A stretch of 14,480 nt of DNA from Candidatus Sericytochromatia bacterium (lineage in GTDB: Bacteria > Cyanobacteriota > Sericytochromatia > S15B-MN24 > UBA4093), in the NCBI GenBank assembly GCA_036676495.1, contig JAKFCT010000074.1, positions 1 to 14,480 on the forward strand, in the 5' to 3' direction. Every line of letters starts with the position of its first letter. The first letter of the stretch is position 1. Below are positions 316 through 14,467 of the stretch, piece by piece. A program made the translations under genes and the position numbers. The notes beneath the pieces are model-generated. The model had not been told where the DNA came from and searched no databases. It saw only the letters and a list, made by a program, of their open reading frames with translations.

Positions 316-1911
316 ATGCCCAAGATCGACGGATTGCTGCAGCGCCTGTTGCCCCCTCGCCGGCCCCAGGAACAGGCTCCTGGAGGCTCGACGGCGACTC
401 CGGCGCCCCTCGGGGCCAAAACGCTGACGCCCACCTCCCAGGCCGACGAGCTCCAGCTCTCCAAGTCCCTCCCGCAATTTGCCCCGAACCTCACCTCCGA
501 AGAAAAAGTCCTCATGGGCAAGGGTCTCCTTCCCGGGGTTTACGCCGAACTCAAGGCCCTCATGGAAGAGGACGGCGTCGAGGCTGCCAAGAAAGCCTAC
601 CGGAAAGGCAAGGACGGTCCCTTCGACCCCTCCTTCGGCGATCCCACCCACATGCTCTGGCTCGCCAAGAAGCTCGACGGCAACGCGGAATGGCAACGCC
701 TCGCCAAGGACGTGCAGCCCGGCGATATTCTCATCGAAACCTACAACAAGCCGGAAGACATGATCACCCAGATGACCGGCGGCCCGTTCGTCCACGCGCG
801 CCTCTGCGTGTCGGTCAATCCCCCTGAGTTCATCGAGGCGGTCGGCATCACCGGCAACTCCCAGGACGCGACAAACAACACCGTCCGCTGGAGCCCCCTC
901 CCCTTCTCGGAACGCATGAGCGTCCGTCTCATCCGCCCGACCGAAAACGTGCCCGAGCCTCAGAAGGGCCGGGCCATCGAGGAAGCCATCGCGTACGCCA
1001 AGGATCAACTCGGCAAGCCTTACGACTACACCTACACCAACGTCAACGAGGGCGACGGTCTCACCGATGCCTTCTACTGCAGCGAGCTGGCCTACCTGGC
1101 CTACGCCAGCCCGGAAGGCGCGAACTTCAGCATCCCCATCTCCAAGTCCGCCGAGCGCGACCAGCTGATCGTCGCGGCCAACGACCTGGTGACCGCGCTC
1201 AACCCCCGTGACAAGGAAGCGCTGCTGGACCAGTCCCTCAAGCTCTTCACGCGCAACCCCAAGCCCACGGGCACCGAGATGGTCGCCTTCCTGGTCGACA
1301 ACGTCATGACCAAGTGCGAGGCCACCGAGAAGCTCACCGCCACGCCGGAGGATCGCGAGCGCCTCAAGAAGACCATCCAGTCCCTCATGGAAGGCAAGGC
1401 CTTCCCCAGCCTCCACCAGGCGATCGCCGAGTTCAACGCCGACGAGGCCAACGGCAAGCACGACGGCTTCCTCGGCTGGGGCCAGGAGCAGAAGAACCGG
1501 CTGGACATCGGCGTCGGCCTCGGCAAGGACATCGCTCACCTGATCGGCACCAGCGGCCTCAACTTCCAGGAGAGCATCAAGGCCGGCTGGGACGTGGCGA
1601 ATGCCCTCCTGCCCCACTCGGAGGTGCTCATGTCCTTCCTGTACGGCCCCGACGACGGCCGCACGCAGATGGCCGGCAAGGTGCTCGATTCACTCGATTG
1701 GTTGAAGAAGAACGTTCCGGACCTTCCCGTGATCGGAGATCTCGGCATCGGCAACCTGCCGGAGCGCGCGAAGCCCACCCTCAAGACGGATTTCGTCAGC
1801 CCCACGGACCTGGCCTGGGCCGACCTGCCTCACTCCGACTACAACGTGAAAAGCGACTTCCCGATCGATCAGGAAGGCTACGAGAAGTACGCCGCCAAGG
1901 CCGCCAGCTAA
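316..1911 (+). CDS. Permuted papain-like NlpC/P60 (YiiX/YebB-like) cysteine hydrolase, 531 aa
   Basis: SD GGGAGGA just upstream of the ATG. Motifs occur in permuted order: VQPGDILI, His160 (FVHARL), GKPYDY, FYCSELAY (Cys255), and a late FVSPTDL. Confidence 0.85.
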   Translation: MPKIDGLLQRLLPPRRPQEQAPGGSTATPAPLGAKTLTPTSQADELQLSKSLPQFAPNLTSEEKVLMGKGLLPGVYAELKALMEEDGVEAAKKAYRKGKDGPFDPSFGDPTHMLWLAKKLDGNAEWQRLAKDVQPGDILIETYNKPEDMITQMTGGPFVHARLCVSVNPPEFIEAVGITGNSQDATNNTVRWSPLPFSERMSVRLIRPTENVPEPQKGRAIEEAIAYAKDQLGKPYDYTYTNVNEGDGLTDAFYCSELAYLAYASPEGANFSIPISKSAERDQLIVAANDLVTALNPRDKEALLDQSLKLFTRNPKPTGTEMVAFLVDNVMTKCEATEKLTATPEDRERLKKTIQSLMEGKAFPSLHQAIAEFNADEANGKHDGFLGWGQEQKNRLDIGVGLGKDIAHLIGTSGLNFQESIKAGWDVANALLPHSEVLMSFLYGPDDGRTQMAGKVLDSLDWLKKNVPDLPVIGDLGIGNLPERAKPTLKTDFVSPTDLAWADLPHSDYNVKSDFPIDQEGYEKYAAKAAS

Positions 1912-3116: not shown

Positions 3117-3277
3117 GGATCCCTCCTATTCTCGCGTCAACGGCGACTCGCTCATGCGCGTGCCTGCCGGCCGCGTGAGCCATGAGGGTGATAGCACGTG
3201 CATGCCTCCGAGCCGGATTATCCGGCACCCGGGGAAGGCGTGCAACGCCTGGCCTCCCGCTTGCCACCATGTCGACG

Positions 3278-3303
3278 GTTAAGCGCCCGGACATCGCGGG
3301 AAC
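3278..3303 (+). promoter_or_regulatory. Possible alternative-sigma (SigB/SigF-like) promoter GTTAAG-N14-GGGAAC
   Basis: Resembles the SigB-type consensus GTTTAA-N12-14-GGGWAW and ends 28 nt upstream of the ATG at 3332. Confidence 0.35.
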
Positions 3304-3331
3304 AAGAGAGGAAGCCCCCGAGGAGGTGCAC

Positions 3332-4570
3332 ATGACGCGTTCGATTTCTACGGCTTCCCCGGTTTCCCGTTCCACCCCCCTGCCGGCGACGAGCCCGGTC
3401 GAGCCCCCGAAGGCTCCCGTTTCGTCCGCGGCGGTGTCGCGGGGCGATCGCCTGAACCTGGGTGGCTCGCGCGATCCCCTCCTCGAAGCCGATCTCCGGC
3501 TCAAGGTCGTCGAAGGGCCCCGCTTGCTCGCCAACGGTCAGGTCGGCTTCAGCCGGACCTTCCTCGAGCGGCTCCTCAAGCACTCCCTCTCCAAGGGCGA
3601 GACCCTCTCCAATGCCCAGGTTTCCTTCGACCCGACGCGTGGGGCGTACTCCGTACGCGCATCCGCGAAGGTGAAGGGCCTGAACGTTCCCTTCACCGTG
3701 GAGCTCAAGCCCGAGGTCATCGGCCAAGGCGTCGGCTTCAAGCTCGACAACCTGCGCATCCCCCTGGGCGAGTCCGGCCGCTTCGGGATCCAGCACCAGT
3801 GGCTCACGGGCAAGGTCTGCGAGGAGCTGGCCAAGGAACTCGCCTGGAGCCTCGGAGCCAAGGCCCATCCGGATCAGGGCGTCGTGACCCTGGACCCGAA
3901 CGCCATCCTTCACCACGTCAACGCCTTGCCGCAAGGCCTCGGGATCGACCTCGCGCGGACCGCGCTGCGCACGACGGTCTCGGCCACGGGGGATCTGACC
4001 CTGGGCATGAGCGCCGCGGGGCTGGCTCCGGCCGCCGACACCTCGGAACACTCCGATCTCGCGGTGGAAGCGGATGCCGCGGGCTTGCAAGCGCTGCTCA
4101 AGAGCGTGCTCGCTCCCGATTACGAGGTCGGCAAGGTGACGCTGAAGGACGGCGGCCTGACGATCGACGGACAAGCGGAGTTCAAGGACGGCAGCGACGT
4201 CATCAATGCCGGCAAGGTGCTCGTCGCCTTGATCGGCCTGGCGGCCGGAGACGCCCGTGCCGCCGGCAGGCCGCTGGAAGCCACCCGCTTGATGATCCCG
4301 CTGGATCTGGACCTCACGATCACGGGCACCGAGCTGCGGGTGAAGCCCAGCATCGGAAAGGCGTTGGGAGAGCTCGCCAAGACCTTCGAAGCGGCGGGCC
4401 TGTCGCCGGTTCAGGAGGGCGGAAGCCTGCGGGTGGATCTCTCCGCCATCCTGAAGGATCGGGGGCGGTTCGAGACCATGCAGTTCCGGAAGGACGGCAT
4501 GCAGGTTCGGATGAAGCTCGACCTCGACGCGTTCATCGCCAACCCGGCCATCAACGGGGCAGGGGGTTAG
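3332..4570 (+). CDS. Hypothetical protein, 412 aa, with a low-complexity N-terminus and two possible TULIP/DUF2993-like domains
   Basis: SD AGGAGGT upstream of ATG 3332, preferred over the ORF-track start at 3182. Typical high-GC3 codon usage. Two segments show a helix followed by long amphipathic beta-strands. Confidence 0.75.
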   Translation: MTRSISTASPVSRSTPLPATSPVEPPKAPVSSAAVSRGDRLNLGGSRDPLLEADLRLKVVEGPRLLANGQVGFSRTFLERLLKHSLSKGETLSNAQVSFDPTRGAYSVRASAKVKGLNVPFTVELKPEVIGQGVGFKLDNLRIPLGESGRFGIQHQWLTGKVCEELAKELAWSLGAKAHPDQGVVTLDPNAILHHVNALPQGLGIDLARTALRTTVSATGDLTLGMSAAGLAPAADTSEHSDLAVEADAAGLQALLKSVLAPDYEVGKVTLKDGGLTIDGQAEFKDGSDVINAGKVLVALIGLAAGDARAAGRPLEATRLMIPLDLDLTITGTELRVKPSIGKALGELAKTFEAAGLSPVQEGGSLRVDLSAILKDRGRFETMQFRKDGMQVRMKLDLDAFIANPAINGAGG

Positions 4571-4609: not shown

Positions 4610-4987
4610 CTAGGGAAGCAGGTAGCCGATGATGCGGGCGGACGGGCTGGCGTTGGCCGGCACGTCGTAAAGGGTGGCGACCCCGCGGCGGCCCATGCCG
4701 ACCGGCAAGTAGTTGACGACCTGATCGAGCGGGGGTGGGCCGCCGGGAGCGTCGATCCGCACGATCACGCGTTCAGCGGCGGCCGTCCCGCGGTTGCGCA
4801 GCTCGAAGCGAACGATCATGTGATCCCCTTTGCGCTCCACGCCGGTAATCGCGGCGCTGAGAAGCTCCACCGTGGGCTGGCCGGGCCGCTCAAGGACGAT
4901 CAGTCCCACGAGCAGGCCGATGATGACGCTCAGCCCCAGCCCGAAGGCCGTCATCTCGATGCGGCGCTGCCACTTGGCATCCTTCAT
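4610..4987 (-). CDS. TIGR02588-family protein (N-terminal TM helix plus small beta domain), 125 aa
   Basis: The real start is ATG 4987, which overlaps the upstream stop (ATGA). Sequence MKDAKWQRRIEMTAFGLGLSVIIGLLVGLIV...VRFELRNRGTAAAERVIV...VNYLP...RRG...ARIIGYLLP. This is the usual partner of TIGR02587. Confidence 0.8.
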   Translation of the reverse strand: MKDAKWQRRIEMTAFGLGLSVIIGLLVGLIVLERPGQPTVELLSAAITGVERKGDHMIVRFELRNRGTAAAERVIVRIDAPGGPPPLDQVVNYLPVGMGRRGVATLYDVPANASPSARIIGYLLP

Positions 4988-5823
4988 ACGACCAGCCTCC
5001 CGGCGGCCCCGCCGATGGTGCAGGGCAGGCCCAGCACCAGCATCATCCCGAGGACCTGATGGACGGAGATGCCTTCGACGAGGTAGCCCATGAACCAGAG
5101 CAGGACGAAGGCGACCAGCAGCGCGAGGCCGTAGCTCATGAGGGTCTCGCCCCAGGGGGACTGCAGGATGCCTTTTGCGGCCAGGCGGTTGGATTGTCCG
5201 GAGAGATCCGCCATGAAGATCAGGGCGTAGGAGACGAGGAGCGAGAGGATCGCGAAGGCCAGGCCGTGCAGCCATGAGCCCTGGATGGCGATCGCCAGGA
5301 CCTCCTCGTTCGGGGCCACGCTCAGGCCCAGGAAGACGCCTCCGACCACCGTCATGCCGAAGTCGGCCAGGTCCGCCTGGAGGCCCTTGAGGCGGGACGG
5401 ACGCTCGCCTTTGCCGCCAAGAAGCGAGCGCGCCAGCGAGAAGCCGATCGCCGTGGGCACGGCCAGGATCATGACCTGCTTGATCAGGGAGAGCAGGGGG
5501 GTCTCCGGGACGATTACTCCCATGACCCAGAGCATGAGGGCCGCGACCAGGGAGCTGAGGCCCAGGGAAGTCGCAGAGTCCTCGAGGTAGTCGCGAAGGG
5601 TATCGGCCTCGCGGAAGCCCGAGAAGAGGTTGAGCCCGACGCAGAGCCCGTAGCCGAGCAGGAAGAAGAGGAGGATCTTCCAGGTCGGGGTGGAATGCGC
5701 CAGCCACCAGACCTCCATGGTGTAGAGGACGGGGATGGCGAAGACCAGGGCGCCGCAGGCTCCCCGCACGAGGCAAGCCAGCTCGTCCTGCTGGGCGGGG
5801 GCGGGGGCGGAGTTCTCGGGCAT
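4984..5823 (-). CDS. TIGR02587 / DUF2391-family integral membrane protein, about 279 aa
   Basis: Motifs RGACGALVFAIPVLYTMEVWW, SVAPNEEV and LGLPCTIGGAAGRL, plus multiple TM segments. ATG 5823 has SD GGAGG 5 nt upstream (the ORF-track GTG at 5829 lies within the SD). Confidence 0.88.
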   Translation of the reverse strand: MPENSAPAPAQQDELACLVRGACGALVFAIPVLYTMEVWWLAHSTPTWKILLFFLLGYGLCVGLNLFSGFREADTLRDYLEDSATSLGLSSLVAALMLWVMGVIVPETPLLSLIKQVMILAVPTAIGFSLARSLLGGKGERPSRLKGLQADLADFGMTVVGGVFLGLSVAPNEEVLAIAIQGSWLHGLAFAILSLLVSYALIFMADLSGQSNRLAAKGILQSPWGETLMSYGLALLVAFVLLWFMGYLVEGISVHQVLGMMLVLGLPCTIGGAAGRLVV

Positions 5824-5829
5824 GCGCAC

Positions 5830-5911: not shown

Positions 5912-7909
5912 TCAGTCCACCTTGACCGGGCTCAACAGGCCCATCAGCTGGTTCAACTGGGCCTGGGTTCCCATCACCAGGATCTCGTCATGCCCGCGCA
6001 GCACCTTGTCGGCCTTGGGGTTCGGGATGGTCTTGCCATCCTGGCGAACGGCCAGCACGCCCACGCCGGTGCGCCCGCGCACGTCCGCTTCGCGGAGGCT
6101 GTGCCCGTCGAGGGGCGAGCCCAGGGGCACCTCCAGCCAGAGCAGTTCCGCTTCTCCCAGGGCCTCGAGGAGGTCGGGAGTGGTGTCGGGGTTGAAGTCG
6201 TCCTGGAACTGGCGGTAGCCTTCCTTGCGGATCTGGTGGGAGTAGCGCTGGATCTCGCGGCTGGTGTAGCCCAGCTTGGCGAGGGTGTAGCGGATGACTT
6301 CGATGCTGGCCTCGAACTCCGGCTGGACGACTTCCTCGGCCCCCAGCTGATAGAGGCCGGCCACGTCCTGGCTGCGCTGGGCCCGGGCGATGACGTCGAG
6401 CTTGGGGTTGATCTGCTTGGCGTTGGCCATGGCCATCTGGCAGGCGAGGGGGTCGGGCAGGGCCACCACCATGACGCGGGCCAGCTCGAGGCGCGCGTGG
6501 CGCAACACCTCGATGTTGGAGGAGTCGCCGTAGAGGCAGGGCACGCCGCGGGCGCGCAGCTCCTGGATGCGGACGTGATCGATGTCGATGACGAGCACGG
6601 GGAGGCCGCTGCGGACCAGGACCTTGCCGAGGTTGCTGCCGACCCGGCCGAAGCCGCAGATCACGATGTGATCGACCAGGCCCGTCAACTCGGCCGTCGC
6701 GACGGATTCGCTGCGCCTGCGCGCGGAGGCCTGATGGATGAAGGGGAGGCGTTGCAGCAGCCGATACAGCGGGGTCGCGCCCTGCATCATCAGCGGGGTG
6801 ACGAGAATGGAGAGGAGAGCGCTCGCGAGGATGATCGAGAAGAAATCATCGGTGAAGAGGCCGTCCTGACGCCCCATCTTGGCGAGCACGAAGGAGAATT
6901 CCCCGATCTGGGCGAGGCCCATGCCGACGGCGAGGGAGGTGCGCCCCGAGTAGCCGAAGAGGCGGGTGATGCCCGCGATCAGGACCGCCTTGCCGAGGAC
7001 GATGGCGAGCGTCAGGCCGCCGACGGCCGGCAGGTGGGTGATCAAGAAGGCGGGGTTGATCAGCATGCCGACCGAGACGAAGAAGAGGGTGGCGAAGAGG
7101 TCCCGCAGGGGGATGACGTCGGCGAGGATCTGGTGGCTGTGGTCGGACTCCGAGACCACCATGCCCGCGAGGAAGGCGCCCAGGGCCAGGGAGAGGCCGA
7201 AGGAATAGGTGATGGCGGCCGTGCCGAAGCAGAGGGCGACCGAGGAGAGCAGGAAGAGCTCGCGGCTGCGGGTGGCGGCGATGCGGGCCATGATCTTGGG
7301 GATGAGGCGGGTGCCGACCACGCCGAGCAGCGCGAGGATCAGGGCGGCCTTGCCGAGGGCGAAGAGCATGGGCAAGCCGAAGATCTTGGCGGGGTCGCTG
7401 AGGTTGGGGAGGATGACCATCATGGGCACGACGCTCAGGTCCTGGACGATCAGGAGGCCGAGGGCGATGCGGCCGTGCATGGAGTCGAGCTCGCCGCGCT
7501 CCATGAGGACCTTGAGGACGATGACGGTGCTGGAGATGGCGATGATGCAGCCGAGCAGGATGCCGGCGCCGAGGGAGAGGCCGAAGAGGGTGGAGACGCC
7601 TCCGGCGAGGGCGATCGCCAGCAGGATCTGGAGAGCGCCGCCGATGACGGCCACCTTGTAGACGGGCTTGAGCTCGGCCAGGGAGAATTCGACGCCGAGG
7701 GCGAACATCAGGAGCGCCACGCCGATCTCGGCGAACATCTCGATGGTGTGGACGTCCGAGACGAAGCCGAGCGCGTAGGGCCCGACCAGCAGGCCGCCGA
7801 TCAGGTAGCCGATGATGATGGGTTGCTTGAGACGATAGAAGATGGCCCCGCAGGTGATGGCGGCCAGCAAGACGGCAGCCAGATCCTGGAGGAGGCGAAA
7901 GGCATCCAA
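5912..7909 (-). CDS. CPA2-family (KefB/KefC/YbaL-like) cation:proton antiporter with TrkA_N (RCK_N) and TrkA_C (RCK_C) domains, 665 aa
   Basis: TTG start with SD GGAGGA. Motifs AEIGVALLMFALGVEFS, AISSTVIV, LIVQDL, SLALGAFLAG, LFFVSVGM and AQIGEFSF. RCK_N motif HIVICGFGRVG...YGD; C-terminal RCK_C GSPLDGHSL...VLAVRQ...PNP. Confidence 0.95.
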   Translation of the reverse strand: MDAFRLLQDLAAVLLAAITCGAIFYRLKQPIIIGYLIGGLLVGPYALGFVSDVHTIEMFAEIGVALLMFALGVEFSLAELKPVYKVAVIGGALQILLAIALAGGVSTLFGLSLGAGILLGCIIAISSTVIVLKVLMERGELDSMHGRIALGLLIVQDLSVVPMMVILPNLSDPAKIFGLPMLFALGKAALILALLGVVGTRLIPKIMARIAATRSRELFLLSSVALCFGTAAITYSFGLSLALGAFLAGMVVSESDHSHQILADVIPLRDLFATLFFVSVGMLINPAFLITHLPAVGGLTLAIVLGKAVLIAGITRLFGYSGRTSLAVGMGLAQIGEFSFVLAKMGRQDGLFTDDFFSIILASALLSILVTPLMMQGATPLYRLLQRLPFIHQASARRRSESVATAELTGLVDHIVICGFGRVGSNLGKVLVRSGLPVLVIDIDHVRIQELRARGVPCLYGDSSNIEVLRHARLELARVMVVALPDPLACQMAMANAKQINPKLDVIARAQRSQDVAGLYQLGAEEVVQPEFEASIEVIRYTLAKLGYTSREIQRYSHQIRKEGYRQFQDDFNPDTTPDLLEALGEAELLWLEVPLGSPLDGHSLREADVRGRTGVGVLAVRQDGKTIPNPKADKVLRGHDEILVMGTQAQLNQLMGLLSPVKVD

Positions 7910-7976
7910 GGTAGTCCTCCTTTCTCACCCGTGAGGGGGAGAGTGGCGAGTCGCGAAGGTTCGCCTCGTCGAGGCG

Positions 7977-8426
7977 TTAGGCGCGGGCCGGAGGAGCTCG
8001 GAGGTGGAAGGGGGTGGGGGGAGGAAGGGCGATCTGGCGCACCCGCTTGACGGGGATGCGGGGGTTGGCGCGGATGCCGGCGTAGAGGTGGGACGTCTCC
8101 CGGAGGCGCAGCTTAGGTTCGTAGGTGCGATCGCTGCTCTGCGGGGCCAAGGGGTCCAGCGCGGAGAGCATGGGTTGGACGTTGCGCGCCCCGAAGCGCG
8201 CGCCCCGTCGGGAGCCCAGGGCCCGAGACTTCAAGGCGTCGTCCGATTGCGCCAGCGCCGTCGTGGCATGCGACTGGAAGGAGTCCTGCTGCCAGAAGGG
8301 GTTCATGGCCGGGACCTTCATGGGGATCAGGGAGAGGAGACAGGTGACGGCCAGGGCCAGGAAGACTCCCGCCCAGCGGGCGCGAGCGACATGCAGCGAA
8401 TGGGGGGAACTGGCCGTGAGCGTCAG
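7977..8426 (-). CDS. Putative leader/arrest peptide (about 149 aa) with an N-terminal signal-like hydrophobic segment and a C-terminal RAPP motif
   Basis: The frame of ORF 7977..8321 stays open upstream and adds (L/M)TLTASSPHSLHVARARWAGVFLALAVTCLLSLIP. An in-frame CTG at 8426 has GGAGA 7 nt upstream. The ORF ends LPPPTPFHLRAPPARA*, 67 nt before the antiporter start. The start site is uncertain. Confidence 0.6.
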   Translation of the reverse strand: MTLTASSPHSLHVARARWAGVFLALAVTCLLSLIPMKVPAMNPFWQQDSFQSHATTALAQSDDALKSRALGSRRGARFGARNVQPMLSALDPLAPQSSDRTYEPKLRLRETSHLYAGIRANPRIPVKRVRQIALPPPTPFHLRAPPARA

Positions 8427-8551
8427 GGGGTGGTCTCCATCTAGAGGATGTGCGCTTCGAACGGAGTCCTTATTCGGGCAGCCGGCGCCTTCGCGGCATG
8501 CCGGGAGCCGCCATGACGGCCCGACGGGGAGGTTTCGCGTGGCGCCCTTCC

Positions 8552-8557
8552 ATTATA
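8552..8557 (-). promoter_or_regulatory. Consensus sigma70 -10 element (TATAAT), likely driving the leader ORF and antiporter operon
   Basis: Perfect TATAAT on the minus strand in a roughly 70% GC context, 16 nt downstream of the 8574 stop. No convincing -35. Confidence 0.55.
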
Positions 8558-8573
8558 CCGCAAGGCGGCGCGT

Positions 8574-9485
8574 TCAGGGGCGCGTGACGGCGACGCCGAG
8601 GACGCCGCAGGCCAGGGCCGTGAGGGGAGGGTAGGTGCCTCCGAGGGTGGCGCCGGCGATCGCCGCGACGAGAAAGGCCAGGCATCCGAGCAGAAAGGGC
8701 CAGCGCGGGAGATCCCAGCCCGCCGGCGGGGCGGCGAGGGCCGGCTCGGGCGATGCTTCGGGCGGGGCGGCCTCGGAGATGGAGGGCTCCGCGGCTTCGG
8801 AAGCGAGGAGCGGTTCCTCGAACACCAGCACGCTCTCCGGGGAGGGATCCGGCAGGGGCGGGTCCAGGGTCGGCGTGGGGAGCGCGGCGGCCGCGGACAC
8901 CGACGGTGCGGACAGCGAGGGTGCGGGCTCCAAGGGCGCGGCCGACGACGTCGTCGGCTCCGAGGGCGCGAGCTCCGAGGGCGCGAGCTCCGAGGGCTCC
9001 GGAGGAGCGACCTCCGCGGGTACCGAGTCGGAGCGGTCCCGCATGGCGGGGGTGGCCGAGACCAGGGTGCGTTCCGGCAGCTTGGCATCCCGTCGGGAGT
9101 CCCGGAGGTCGCCCGAGGCGTAGGAGGCCGGTGCGGCCGCCTCCAAGGGGCGAGAGGCAGGGCGAGGGGTGGGCCGCGGGGGCGGCACGGCCTCGATCAT
9201 GGTCGTGACGTCGTCCCAGGCGACTCCCGGGAGCGGGGTTCCGAAGAAGACCCGGGTGCGATAGGCCAGGACCTGGAGCTGCTTGAGGATCGCGGGCAGG
9301 TCGGATCGGTCGTCGCTCTCCAGGCAGGCGTAAAGGCGTTCCTGGACGCTGTCGGCCTGGAGGCGGAAGTCCTCGAGACGGCGGCGGTCGACGCCGGACG
9401 CGGCCCGAGCATCCAGGGAGGTGCGGACGTTGTCGAAGAAACGATCGAGCTTGGGGCGCAGCCCCGCGAACGACCAAGCGTGCAT
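8574..9485 (-). CDS. Hypothetical protein, about 303 aa: N-terminal helical domain, Pro/Ala/Ser/Glu linker, C-terminal hydrophobic segments
   Basis: SD AAGGAGG before ATG-ATG (9488/9485). C-terminus WPFLLGCLAFLVAAIAGATLGGTYPPLTALACGVLGVAV is TM-like. Confidence 0.75.
   Translation of the reverse strand: MHAWSFAGLRPKLDRFFDNVRTSLDARAASGVDRRRLEDFRLQADSVQERLYACLESDDRSDLPAILKQLQVLAYRTRVFFGTPLPGVAWDDVTTMIEAVPPPRPTPRPASRPLEAAAPASYASGDLRDSRRDAKLPERTLVSATPAMRDRSDSVPAEVAPPEPSELAPSELAPSEPTTSSAAPLEPAPSLSAPSVSAAAALPTPTLDPPLPDPSPESVLVFEEPLLASEAAEPSISEAAPPEASPEPALAAPPAGWDLPRWPFLLGCLAFLVAAIAGATLGGTYPPLTALACGVLGVAVTRP
8957..8997. repeat. 15-bp in-frame tandem repeat, about 2.7 copies
   Basis: GCTCCGAGGGCGCGA x2 plus GCTCCGAGGGC, encoding PSELAPSELAPSE in the linker of the 8574..9485 protein. 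Confidence 0.85.
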
Positions 9486-9510
9486 CATCCCCTCCTTCAC
9501 CGGGACCCAT

Positions 9511-11812: not shown

Positions 11813-13714
11813 CTAGCGCGGCTCGAGCATCCGCGCGGGGCCGGAAACCACGGCGTAGGCGTCCCGCATCTCCCGGTCCAGGGCTTCGAGCAACTCGCTG
11901 AAGAAGCCCCCATGCTCGATCATGTCCTTGGTGAAGGGGTTCATGATGGTGCTGCGCAGGACCGTGAGCGGCCGGCCTTCCTCGAGCATGCTCCAGACCA
12001 TCGGGTCCAGGCGGGTATGCAGGCCCCGAGCGTACTTCTTGACGTCGAACGCCGTCTTGGAGAGCAGGAACTCGTAGCTGAAGACCCGGCGGTTGGGATG
12101 GATGGCGAAGCGCTTGTAAAGCTCCTCGTTGAAGCGATTGAGCTCTTCGTGGGAGGTGACGGTCGGCGGCAGGGCGATGAAGGTCACCAGGTTGAGGTCG
12201 GGCTCGTTGAGGGGGATCAGGCGCATCCCCTCGGCGGAGCGGTGGCTCGCCAGCGCGTCTTTCAGCATCCGCGCGCAGGAGATGGTGTTGCTGATGAGCG
12301 CTCCGTAGCCCGTCGTGTCGAGCGGCAGGACCCGGTGGTTGATCCAGACGGCCGCAGCGGCCGCTCCGGGCTTCGAGCCCTCCACAATGTACTTGCCGAT
12401 GGTGGCGTGGGGTTCGTCCTCCTCGTGGAAGACGTAGGGGGCCTCGATGGTGAGGAACTCGCGGATGCGCTGGTCCCGGAAGACGATCGCGCCCGCGGGG
12501 TACGGCGAGTAGCCGAGCTTGTGAGGGTCGATCGTGATGGAGTCGGTTTCGGGAAGGGCCTCGAAGCTGGCGGCAGCAGCCCGATCGTAGGGCCCCTTGA
12601 CCCATTGTCCCTGGGGATCGCGGAAGCGGGAGGTCGCATACCCGCCATAGGCGCCGTCGACGTGGCAGTAGAAATCCATGCCGAGGCGCGCGGCGTCGCG
12701 CTTGACCTCGAGCAGGCGATGCACTTCGTCCACCGTGCCGGTTTCGGTCGAGCCCAGCACGGCCACCAGGCCGAGGACGGGGACCTGGCTGGCGGCGAGG
12801 TCCTCGAGGACGCCGCGGAAGGCCTCCGGGTCGATCCGGTAGTGCTCGTCGAGGGGCAGCTCGATGATCTGCTCGCGTCCGCCTCCCAGGAGATCGACGG
12901 TCTTGACCCAGGAGTAGTGCTTGGTGGCAGGCACCAGGAGCACGGGTTCGGGAAGTGGGGCGCCGAGGGCGGATTCGAAGGCGCGATAGAAGCCGAGCAT
13001 GCCCTTGGAGGCAACGGAGGAGGCGTCGAGCCGGCGAAGGATGCGGGAGTCGGGCATCCGGAGCAAGGTCTCGCGAAGCTGCAGGGCGGCCTCCAGGGGA
13101 ACGTTCATCAGCTCCCAGGGAGTCATGGCCTGAAGGGTGGTGGAAGAACCGTCGGCCCGCTTGATGGGAAGGTCGGGCAGGTCGAGCTCACGGGCCACCA
13201 TGGCGGCGGCGGGGGCGAAGAACTTGATGCCGCGCACGGCCCAGAGGGCTTCGAGGTTGGCGACCGAGCCGCCCGAGGTGAGGTGTCCCCAGGCCTGAGG
13301 GCCGTAGCCGACCAAGCGCGCGAGCTGCTTGCCGACCTCGAGTTCGAGCTCGGTGGTGACCGGGGCGGCCTCTTCGCTGATGTTGTTCGGGTTGTAGAGC
13401 ATCGCCGCGAAGTAGCCGACCAGGCTGGAGATGAGGACGTCGCTGGTCATGTGGGCGATGTAGCGGGGGCTGAAGAGGGGCGCTCCCTGCTTGAGGCGGC
13501 TGAGGAGGTAGTAGAGTTCCTGGCGCAAGCGCATCACGGAGGCGTCGTAGGCCTCGCTACGCTTGTCGGATTCGCGGATGAAGGGGCCATCCTCGGGATG
13601 GAAGTTGCGCCGCCAGAAGACGTGATCGCGCAGGGCCTCGAGGATGAAGTCCTCGACGATCTGGGCGTTCTCGCCCGCAGGTCCCAGGAAAAGGGCTCGA
13701 AATGGTAGGGCCAT
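11813..13714 (-). CDS. Group II PLP-dependent amino-acid decarboxylase, tyrosine decarboxylase (TdcA/TyrDC)-like, about 633 aa
   Basis: Motifs ALFLGPAGEN...HVFWRRNFHPED, RYIAHMTSD, YNPNN, WGHLTSGGSVANLEALW, VPATKHYSWVK, HVDGAYGGY, and the PLP-lysine motif DSITIDPHKLGYSPYPAG. ATG 13714 is preferred over the ORF-track start at 13792. Confidence 0.9.
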   Translation of the reverse strand: MALPFRALFLGPAGENAQIVEDFILEALRDHVFWRRNFHPEDGPFIRESDKRSEAYDASVMRLRQELYYLLSRLKQGAPLFSPRYIAHMTSDVLISSLVGYFAAMLYNPNNISEEAAPVTTELELEVGKQLARLVGYGPQAWGHLTSGGSVANLEALWAVRGIKFFAPAAAMVARELDLPDLPIKRADGSSTTLQAMTPWELMNVPLEAALQLRETLLRMPDSRILRRLDASSVASKGMLGFYRAFESALGAPLPEPVLLVPATKHYSWVKTVDLLGGGREQIIELPLDEHYRIDPEAFRGVLEDLAASQVPVLGLVAVLGSTETGTVDEVHRLLEVKRDAARLGMDFYCHVDGAYGGYATSRFRDPQGQWVKGPYDRAAAASFEALPETDSITIDPHKLGYSPYPAGAIVFRDQRIREFLTIEAPYVFHEEDEPHATIGKYIVEGSKPGAAAAAVWINHRVLPLDTTGYGALISNTISCARMLKDALASHRSAEGMRLIPLNEPDLNLVTFIALPPTVTSHEELNRFNEELYKRFAIHPNRRVFSYEFLLSKTAFDVKKYARGLHTRLDPMVWSMLEEGRPLTVLRSTIMNPFTKDMIEHGGFFSELLEALDREMRDAYAVVSGPARMLEPR

Positions 13715-13820
13715 GGCACACCTGATATTCGAAAGCGGGGAAACTTCCCCAGGGTGACAGATTCGGGCGCGCGCGAGATCCGTAGAAACCACGGAGGCCG
13801 CATGCGAAGCCGCGGGGAGC

Positions 13821-13889: not shown

Positions 13890-14165
13890 TTAGACGGGCT
13901 TGTTGGCCACGAAGCAGCTACGGCAGAGCACGGGCTTGCCGGGCGTCGGCTCGAAGGGAACCGTGGTCTTGGTCCCGCAGGTCGTGCAGACGGCCTCGAA
14001 GGAGGGGCGCTCGGAGCTGGATCCCGACGGAGCGGAGGAGCCCGGTGCGGGGCTCGGGCGGAAGGCAGGACGCCCTCCCCGACCGGAGGGACGCCGCTTC
14101 TTGAACTTCTTGGCGTACTCCAGATTGCGCTTGGCCTTTTCAGCCTTGGTGTTGTTCTTGCCCAT
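13890..14165 (-). CDS. Small basic protein with a C-terminal CxxC-x17-CxxC zinc ribbon, 91 aa
   Basis: SD AGGAGGT lies inside the last codons of the upstream gene. Domain FEAVCTTCGTKTTVPFEPTPGKPVLCRSCF; Lys/Arg-rich N-terminus. Confidence 0.85.
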   Translation of the reverse strand: MGKNNTKAEKAKRNLEYAKKFKKRRPSGRGGRPAFRPSPAPGSSAPSGSSSERPSFEAVCTTCGTKTTVPFEPTPGKPVLCRSCFVANKPV

Positions 14166-14167
14166 GG

Positions 14168-14467
14168 TTACCTCCTAAAGCAGTCGCGGCAGTACACGGG
14201 CTTGAGCCCGTTCGGCCGGAAGGGAACCTGGGTTTGAACACCGCACTGCGCACACGTCGCGTCGAACATCTGGCGCGGCTCGGCGGAGGTCCGGGAGGGA
14301 CCCATTCCCCGACCAGCCGGGCGACCCTGCTTCGCGGCGGCGCGGCAGGACCGGCAGCGGCGAGGAGCGGAGAAGCCCTTCTCGGCGAAGAACTCCTGGT
14401 CGGCGACCGTGAAGGGAAACTCGGTGCCGCAGTCCGCGCAGATGATCGTTTGCTCGGAAAAAGACAT
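14168..14467 (-). CDS. Two-domain zinc-ribbon protein (N-terminal zf-trcl-like CxxC...CxxC plus CxxC-x17-CxxC), 99 aa
   Basis: ICADCGTEFPFTVADQEFFAEKGFSAPRRCRSCR and MFDATCAQCGVQTQVPFRPNGLKPVYCRDCF. Purine-rich AAGGAAGG upstream of the ATG. Confidence 0.92.
   Translation of the reverse strand: MSFSEQTIICADCGTEFPFTVADQEFFAEKGFSAPRRCRSCRAAAKQGRPAGRGMGPSRTSAEPRQMFDATCAQCGVQTQVPFRPNGLKPVYCRDCFRR

Follow-up and report, generated by a model that had tools for sequence, protein, structure and literature searches.

Release of a stalled ribosome by the pulling force of protein export is established for SecM and VemP, the latter (from Vibrio alginolyticus) with an arrest motif that differs from RAPP. 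ApdA, ApdP and CruR have been shown to stall at RAPP while the ribosome has the two Pro codons in its P and A sites. The DNA analyzed here, a stretch of 14,480 nucleotides from a Candidatus Sericytochromatia genome (contig JAKFCT010000074.1 of assembly GCA_036676495.1; the window), carries on its minus strand a short open reading frame (ORF; positions 7977-8426) that ends in RAPP and precedes a cation/proton antiporter gene. Comparative sequence evidence identifies this frame as a real and conserved leader of the RAPP type, without CxxC and tied to a Kef-type antiporter. On balance, it would be a regulatory arrest peptide of the SecM/ApdP type that turns on translation of the antiporter.

That a stall can open a Shine-Dalgarno sequence (SD) has been established for SecM and for one secDF leader (PMC10987492). 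In uDF_RQH_Enterobacterales, a stem masks the downstream SD and the stalled ribosome opens the stem (PMC10987492). When CutF stalls, the stem-loop that covers the cutO ribosome-binding site is melted, and CruR acts through Rho-dependent termination (PMC9426467; bioRxiv 2025.02.05.636593). VemP reports the supply of an ion (Na+) indirectly, through SecDF activity (PMC7793623).

Upstream ORFs (uORFs) that end in RAPP or RGPP and carry localization signals precede many non-Sec genes, with arrest shown for seven Streptomyces examples (Fujiwara et al. 2025; PMC12992588). The source data for Fig. 4B of that paper list 30 RAPP-enriched downstream classes, one of which is “cation:proton antiporter” (75 RAPP versus 81 AAPP uORFs, 3.6-fold, adjusted p 1.7e-12), and rows of its uORF list name cation:proton, Kef, K+/H+, NhaD and Mrp subunit A genes. 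A first-pass annotation of the window, made from the sequence, had taken the pairing of a RAPP leader with a cation:proton antiporter to be undescribed; the pairing is already present in these source data. The word “antiporter” occurs 0 times in the main text, where the class is neither discussed nor tested. Such uORFs are reported to be absent from many Cyanobacteriota, and the Sericytochromatia leader family gave no match in the portion of the uORF list searched with two short motifs (PMC12992588). No study of arrest peptides controlling antiporters was found in the literature searched, which mostly did not extend to subscription papers.

The leader and its family

The minus-strand frame is open from 5' of 8426 down to a TAA at 7979-7977. 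Its 149-amino-acid (aa) product, which contains RARWAGVFLALAVTCLLSLIP and ends in LPPPTPFHLRAPPARA, has the layout that the first-pass annotation described: a basic and then hydrophobic N terminus, a linker, and a Pro-rich end with RAPP at 8000-7989, 3 codons before the stop. In the ORF track, the frame starts only at an ATG at 8321, so the hydrophobic segment is missed. The start codon is likely the CTG at 8426, because GGAG followed 8 to 9 nt on by CTG is kept in five of five genus loci (the window, G001, G002, L064 and L065, the set used for start and promoter comparison), because in L064 and L065 an in-frame TAG just upstream shuts the frame and there is no ATG, and because two contigs from sequencing runs show no gap. 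The contig from run X1, possibly the source of this DNA, covers the stretch with 0 differences, and that from run X3, a different strain, has 0 gaps over 8357-8700. In the window, the GGAG of the leader (8435-8438, minus strand) lies 8 nt 5' of the CTG, and leader position 1 is invariant in alignment A6. An ATG at 8440, out of frame with the leader, was considered as the true start in combination with an assembly slip; it was rejected on the evidence of the X1 and X3 contigs and the genus loci.

Upstream of the leader, the first-pass annotation had pointed to a TATAAT, which is found at 8557-8552 (minus strand). This -10-like box lies within TGCGGTATAATG, which is kept 5' of the leader in all five genus loci, and has no recognizable -35; it is a putative promoter element. 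A sigma-70 consensus scan returned 0 full promoters because no -35 matched. Across both strands of the whole genome, TATAAT occurs 202 times and TGCGGTATAAT twice. No terminator-like sites were found in 7500-9200. The 5' untranslated stretch (8441-8551, minus strand) exceeds its counterparts in the other genus loci in length and folds into a GC-rich stem (-44 kcal/mol); it has no Rfam match and belongs to no repeat family in the genome. A scan of 7700-8800 against Rfam gave three weak matches far under the gathering scores, and no known riboswitch. Profile scans assigned the leader to no Pfam or NCBIfam family (Pfam E 0.1), and the sequence family appears to be unnamed so far.

Conservation is concentrated at the two ends of the peptide. 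Alignment A5 has 32 rows drawn from profile hits and loci, or 30 distinct members once 2 duplicates are dropped; V27, L30, P35, R143, P145 and P146 are invariant in it, and S32 and P39 occur in at least 90% of its rows. Residues 17 to 39 (8310-8378, minus strand) form an N-terminal hydrophobic helix with the motif ALAVT-x-LLS-x-x-P-x-K-x-P, according to the alignment, hydrophobicity and AlphaFold. The hydrophobicity of this segment is 2.59 on the Kyte-Doolittle scale over 15 residues in the window leader and 2.15 to 2.87 across the 30 members. The AlphaFold model is weak overall (mean pLDDT 60.7, pTM 0.26); its only confident element is a helix over residues 10-33, with high local confidence and no fold around it. 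The first-pass annotation called the peptide exported; as modeled, the helix may be a signal or a signal anchor. A lipoprotein reading of the Cys at residue 29 was rejected, as that Cys is not conserved beyond the genus. The linker from helix to motif spans 88 to 123 residues in the 30 members and leads to a basic, Pro-rich C-terminal block (residues 114 to 146; 7989-8087, minus strand) of about exit-tunnel length, almost invariant in 16 close homologues and ending in RAPP. The net charge of the last 35 residues is 0 to +7 across the members.

The candidate arrest motif itself (7989-8000, minus strand), with its R and both P invariant, takes the form R-[A/D/S/G]-P-P at the end of all 30 distinct members. 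The second residue is A in 21, D in 6 (the RDPP subgroup), S in 2 and G in 1, and the tail after the motif is exactly 3 residues long in 24 of the 30. CxxC is absent from all 30, as it was said to be from the window leader, and no His, Cys, Asp or Glu is invariant in the alignment. A further hydrophobic stretch close to the stall was rejected as a family feature: it reaches at least 1.5 in only 9/30 members, and the window leader lacks it. The conserved block holds, at 8087-8064 (minus strand), LYAGIRANP, whose GIRA, 26 residues before RAPP, recalls the GIRAGP of SecM and is possibly a coincidence. By language-model features, the nearest named ESM Atlas cluster is SecM (0.93, 144/256 features), a lead only.

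The organism avoids RAPP. In the long frames of its genome (1,977 frames and 828,153 residues of a crude gene set), RAPP is observed 2 times against 21.2 expected, an approximately tenfold depletion, and AAPP 35 times against 35.8 expected. Avoidance of RAPP is reported for bacteria generally (PMC12992588). Across the five genus loci, the Arg of the leader's RAPP is encoded by four different codons.

Homology searches from either side recovered the link between leader and antiporter. Going upstream from the 15 CPA2 homologues with >50% identity (the window included), and without the leader as a query, a RAPP-ending ORF with the helix motif was found in 8 of 15; conservation of RAPP upstream of orthologous antiporters, the check proposed in the first-pass annotation, thus went in favor of the leader. 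Profile searches with the leader gave overlapping sets of 29, 22 and 21 proteins. Since whole-length profiles include the RxPP motif, a profile was also built from only the first 52 residues of the five genus leaders; in 47 class genomes it had 5 non-self matches at E<0.001, all of them RxPP leaders preceding K+/H+-type antiporters, so the link is not circular. Weak matches (L053, L101, L102, L075 and L120) were not leaders where checked. Clear members occur at 13 loci in 8 of the 47 class genomes, and relatives of the window leader are labeled Candidatus Sericytochromatia; in a phylum sample of 201 genomes (47 of the class), no relatives turned up outside the class at E<0.001, a result that is no proof of absence. 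When the whole genome was filtered for small hydrophobic ORFs with an RxPP end, 2 remained, and each precedes one of the 6 Na_H_Exchanger genes that this genome has. Neither secDF nor the other four antiporter genes have a leader within 900 nt, and a RAPP-ending frame before the antiporter on contig C14 is without a hydrophobic segment.

Genes downstream of the leader

The gene following the leader in the window (5912-7909, minus strand) encodes a CPA2-type cation/proton antiporter of 665 aa with Na_H_Exchanger, TrkA_N and TrkA_C domains. It is YbaL/KefC-like, and its architecture is that of Kef plus an extra TrkA_C domain. All NCBIfam scores are below their cutoffs (YbaL, 374/700; KefC, 292/752; KefB, 282/804; CPA2 subfamily, 231/238), and the closest solved structure is KefC (E 4e-61). 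By analogy with its YbaL/KefC relatives, the antiporter may be selective for K+. Its TTG start at 7909 lies 67 nt past the leader stop, whose TAA ends at 7977, the distance originally annotated; its SD (GGAGG, 7916-7920, minus strand) was placed from the sequence and alignment A4.

Fifteen loci of the leader family have usable context, 13 from class genomes and two from metagenomes, and in 13 of them a cation/proton antiporter (CPA2, NhaP2 or NhaD) is one of the three genes that follow first. In 8 loci the leader is directly followed by a CPA2 antiporter gene, in one of them after a possible 34-codon remnant; in G006:C417 the CPA2 gene comes second. Behind the RDPP paralogue of this genome (G000:C28), the first gene encodes an NhaP2-type K+/H+ antiporter, above cutoff. 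Two further loci (G003:C41 and G006:C397) have the order leader, SLH-domain protein, NhaD. In G018, a small membrane ORF comes next after the leader, then a second secF and a pair of CPA2 genes, with secD-secF on another contig. As NhaP2 and NhaD antiporters also lie behind leader paralogues, the leader is tied to monovalent-cation antiporters more strongly than the first-pass annotation supposed. Its statement that the leader sits before neither a secDF-class nor a copper-related gene holds for the window locus and fails for the family, one member of which precedes the second secF. Two of the 15 loci are exceptions. In one, just 5' of the G018 secF unit, an RSPP leader is followed by genes for a membrane protein and a universal stress protein; in the other, an RGPP leader precedes a response regulator gene, and an Nramp gene lies beyond it; the latter locus (L061) is the only member without an antiporter nearby. 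A CPA2 tree places leader-bearing and leaderless paralogues in a poorly resolved fork with a long-branch warning and gives no order of gain or loss.

Several loci have peculiarities of their own. The RDPP paralogue (G000:C28:190730-192712; L044:1444-1860 and on) has an RSPP eight residues before RDPP, its ATG is only 6 nt after a TATAAT, and its mRNA is probably leaderless. L006 has, at 701-1234, an ORF of 178 aa between leader and CPA2 whose end looks TrkA_C-like by eye, with no NCBIfam match; the possible 34-codon remnant, in G003:C43, is at the same place and has the same SD hairpin. L059 (458-3821) and L060 (439-3871) have the leader, an SLH-domain outer-membrane-like protein and an NhaD antiporter. 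L063 (G018:C124:7500-16436) has two tandem leaders, RSPP and then RAPP, in one stretch, where the second secF has no secD with it, and L061 (318-6096; G006:C162) has the RGPP leader, an OmpR-type response regulator, an Nramp transporter and, further on, a universal-stress-like ORF. In G000:C14:53332-59195 (minus strand), secD-secF are followed by a co-directional YbaL-like CPA2 antiporter and an Mrp/ApbC-like ATPase (the latter labeled by eye), with no leader; this is a second genomic link of SecDF with a cation/proton antiporter.

Pairing, mechanism and alternatives

The two Pro codons of RAPP contain CCTCC (7990-7994, minus strand), a candidate anti-SD whose predicted partner is the antiporter SD at 7916-7920. 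In the RNAalifold structure of the five genus loci, GGAGG is paired by the Pro-Pro codons and the start region by the Leu-Arg codons; the stem predicted to mask the SD shows one to two double changes in all. The five-pair helix of codons and SD is intact in all five loci, and one synonymous change of CCT to CCC is accompanied by a change of GGAGG to GGGGG (U-A to C-G, a double change). Codon choice at the motif is unusual: GCT, 5% of the Ala codons of the genome, is used at RAPP in 5/5 genus loci, and CCT, 7% of the Pro codons, in 4/5. Removal of the RAPP codons, a test that drops everything up to the footprint, lowered the predicted cost of opening the ribosome-binding site by 2.4 to 7.2 kcal/mol in the 5 genus loci and by 11.9 kcal/mol in the RDPP paralogue, the strongest predicted SD release of all loci. 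On this predicted fold, a SecM-like SD switch in which a stall means “on” is plausible in the genus loci. A small hairpin right past the leader stop (GCCTC-N3-GAGGC, 7963-7975, minus strand) has 5 pairs, none varying in the 5 loci, an invariance that is neutral on structure.

Stalling, regulation and signal are inferred for the leader. Translation would begin at the weak, conserved CTG, and in all likelihood the ribosome would stall at RAPP with two Pro codons in its P and A sites, as in the described examples. The A, D, S and G found at the second position of RxPP support arrest, because mutagenesis of ApdA and ApdP finds G fully and D and S partly permissive (PMC12992588). The N-terminal helix, ~108 residues ahead of the stall, would then be outside the ribosome and could engage the Sec/YidC machinery, and normal export would pull the nascent chain and end the stall; conserved ends joined by a free linker of 88 to 123 residues match monitoring substrates, and this geometry would permit release by pulling. 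Ribosome-free RAPP codons may next pair with the antiporter SD and start region, a step that is fairly probable in this genus: a stalled ribosome would cover these codons and leave the SD free, so that, on the predicted fold, a long stall would mean more antiporter. The weakest step, with an even chance of being right, concerns the input, which would be a weakened ion-motive drive on export, such as alkaline pH or salt stress lowering SecDF activity, and the response would be synthesis of a K+(Na+)/H+ antiporter, much as VemP reports Na+ supply via SecDF. At alkaline pH, a condition that calls for antiporters, SecDF would lose activity because protons drive it. The coupling to proton-motive force or ion status suggested in the first-pass annotation would, on this view, be indirect. 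The leader-secF unit of G018 resembles vemP-secDF2 and, as an analogy, fits the VemP precedent (PMC7793623). Whatever the input, the leader very probably controls its downstream gene.

Several observations weigh against a regulatory arrest peptide that switches on the antiporter. RAPP alone is insufficient for arrest (PMC12992588). Two of the 15 loci have no antiporter within three genes, and as the loci are kin, the 13 with one amount to about four independent gene associations. Of the 15 close CPA2 homologues in the taxonomic order, 7 have no leader, and in this genome 4 of 6 antiporter genes and secDF have none. A conserved charge pattern acting as a voltage sensor was rejected because linker net charge spans -8 to +6 across the 30 members, which argues against a built-in electrophoretic sensor. 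The covariation of codons and SD is not significant (103/500 and 36/500 shuffles reach it, with 5 related sequences). Blocking nothing beyond a 32-nt footprint brought the cost of SD opening from 9.2 to 4.4 kcal/mol in L066 and changed it little in L067, L064 and L065; in the window the cost hardly moved (7.6 to 7.2 kcal/mol), as the pairing can pass to other C-rich stretches. In the test by removal of the RAPP codons, which by shortening the fragment also biases the gain upward, the other 8 loci, with spacers of 111 to 193 nt, gained only -1.4 to 3.0 kcal/mol, so the SD switch is not family-wide.

A bolder reading would make arrest peptides an unrecognized layer of pH and salt homeostasis, in which the nascent chain gauges the ion-motive state of the membrane and drives antiporter synthesis. 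It would cover the re-use of one Sericytochromatia leader family before CPA2, CPA1 (NhaP2), NhaD and a spare secF together with the unrelated RAPP leaders of other phyla before Kef, K+/H+, NhaD and Mrp genes, with sensing through force on the nascent chain or the conserved helix motif and with ion transport, not protein export, as the output; this is conceivable but doubtful. The leader might instead sense a cation or pH directly, in the way that CruR and CutF respond to copper, which show that exported leaders can sense an ion. The response to K+, Na+ or H+ would then come from the Thr/Ser/Pro/Lys motif where the helix ends, or else from the invariant tunnel block, and the stall would shift without a general export defect. 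The helix motif shows much stronger conservation than an ordinary signal peptide would need and is common to the leaders of three antiporter families. However, CxxC and invariant His, Cys, Asp or Glu are absent, the unconserved linker has no confident predicted structure, and the same leader stands before antiporters of both the K+ and the Na+ type, before a secF unit and before a response regulator; direct sensing is unlikely. The lack of conserved sensing residues would also suit a leader that stalls without being a sensor. A membrane-docked ribosome would hold the mRNA at the translocon and keep the downstream site open, giving steady, membrane-localized synthesis of large membrane proteins, and the antiporter link would reflect their membrane-protein nature and shared ancestry. 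The downstream genes do encode mostly envelope proteins (antiporters, the SLH-domain protein, SecF and small membrane proteins), and the 3.6-fold enrichment of cation:proton antiporters is the lowest of the 30 published classes (PMC12992588). Such an arrangement accounts poorly for the fact that both leaders of this genome, out of thousands of genes, precede antiporters, for the choice of three unrelated antiporter families, and for the leaderless CPA2 paralogues beside leader-bearing ones in four genomes, which also imply that the leader is not needed for making CPA2 protein. Its probability is put slightly below that of direct sensing.

Two alternatives dispense with arrest. The leader product could serve the antiporter protein as a small membrane subunit of accessory function or as a regulator, its RxPP end non-stalling or irrelevant: it has a conserved membrane helix with polar residues, and antiporter operons often carry small ancillary genes, such as those for KefF and KefG. 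An RxPP that is invariant, varies only to arrest-permissive residues and lies 3 codons from the stop in 24/30 members, in a genome that avoids RAPP, makes this improbable, as do the occurrence of the same family before unrelated proteins and the weak CTG start. Finally, Arg, Ala and Pro codons are common at ~69% GC, and RAPP-like words do occur in non-coding frames of control loci, but a chance ORF is refuted by conservation of the protein to ~20 to 30% identity with invariant ends, by synonymous variation in the Arg codon, and by the conserved SD and start, which leave it a negligible probability.

Neighboring genes and comparison with described systems

The antiporter is followed in the window by a TIGR02587/DUF2391 membrane protein (4984-5829, minus strand; above cutoff) and a small partner ORF of 126 aa (4610-4987, minus strand) that overlaps its stop, both accessory and outside the conserved unit. 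The pair had been annotated as TIGR02587 and TIGR02588; the former name stands, whereas the 126-aa frame has no family match (NCBIfam, 1e-5). They had also been proposed as regulated targets. As the pair lies 3' of the antiporter in only 2/5 genus loci (the window and L065), it was rejected as a core target. A pyridoxal phosphate (PLP)-dependent tyrosine-decarboxylase-like enzyme is encoded upstream of the leader region (11813-13792, minus strand) and shares 89 to 93% identity with its counterparts at four other genus loci. Since protons are consumed by amino-acid decarboxylases, this is possibly a pH-homeostasis neighborhood. Two frames without Pfam matches, of 462 aa (3182-4570, plus strand) and 308 aa (8574-9500, minus strand), are conserved neighbors of the locus in the genus. 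The window also encodes a 531-aa protein with a YaeF/YiiX C92 amidase domain (316-1911, plus strand) and two adjacent small treble-clef zinc-finger proteins (zf_Tbcl and zf_Tbcl_2; 13890-14467, minus strand).

Among described systems, the computable features of the leader are those of the RAPP uORFs, and it is not a member of the SecM, DUF2946 or strict Sec-monitoring classes. It has fewer than 300 residues (149 aa), RAPP near its C terminus, a predicted hydrophobic helix as N-terminal signal sequence or transmembrane (TM) segment, and a close, co-oriented downstream gene in a conserved pairing (67 nt; 13/15 loci), the features used by Fujiwara et al. (2025). With the published antiporter class it shares the small uORF, the N-terminal localization signal, the C-terminal RAPP and the antiporter downstream; it differs in that the published rows are unclustered and untested, and in that the leader family sits in a non-photosynthetic class of Cyanobacteriota (PMC12992588).

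The leaders upstream of secDF (ApdA, ApdP and uDF_RQH) also have a signal or TM segment, a variable linker and RAPP near the stop (PMC10987492; PMC12992588), but the target here is an antiporter, with a sec gene (secF) in 1 of the 15 family loci. At the window locus, the downstream gene is not one for export machinery (secA, secDF or yidC); among the relatives, only that in G018, with its second secF, has such a gene downstream. SecM (RAGP; Escherichia coli) shares the proposed logic of a stall that frees the SD. The leader, however, has no match to PF06558 (Pfam, E 0.1) and ends in RAPP, not FxxxxWIxxxxGIRAGP, and whereas SecM and VemP control export-machinery genes, it precedes the gene of an ion transporter. 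CruR and CutF (DUF2946) resemble it in being exported-type leaders with a Pro-rich or RAPP end before a non-Sec gene; unlike them, the family has no CxxC (0/30), no DUF2946 match (Pfam) and no copper genes downstream, where antiporters, the SLH-domain protein, secF or the response regulator are found instead.

The leader is thus probably a translational switch of a type already catalogued computationally. The pairing itself being published as source data, the new detail is the re-use of one leader family before three antiporter families and a spare secF, and since the general idea is catalogued, what the leader offers is a concrete model system; it does not add another kind of regulator. Fujiwara et al. 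ask whether force-dependent release of arrest matters beyond protein localization, and what the source of the force is (PMC12992588). The leader family makes this question testable, with natural RAPP, RDPP, RSPP and RGPP variants before three antiporter families, a spacer of only 67 nt in the window, and arrest codons that may themselves act as an anti-SD. If the leader responds to pH, salt or membrane potential, it would add a translational feedback loop to bacterial ion homeostasis; in any case, it places RAPP leaders in the Cyanobacteriota, a phylum in which the published census found few (PMC12992588).

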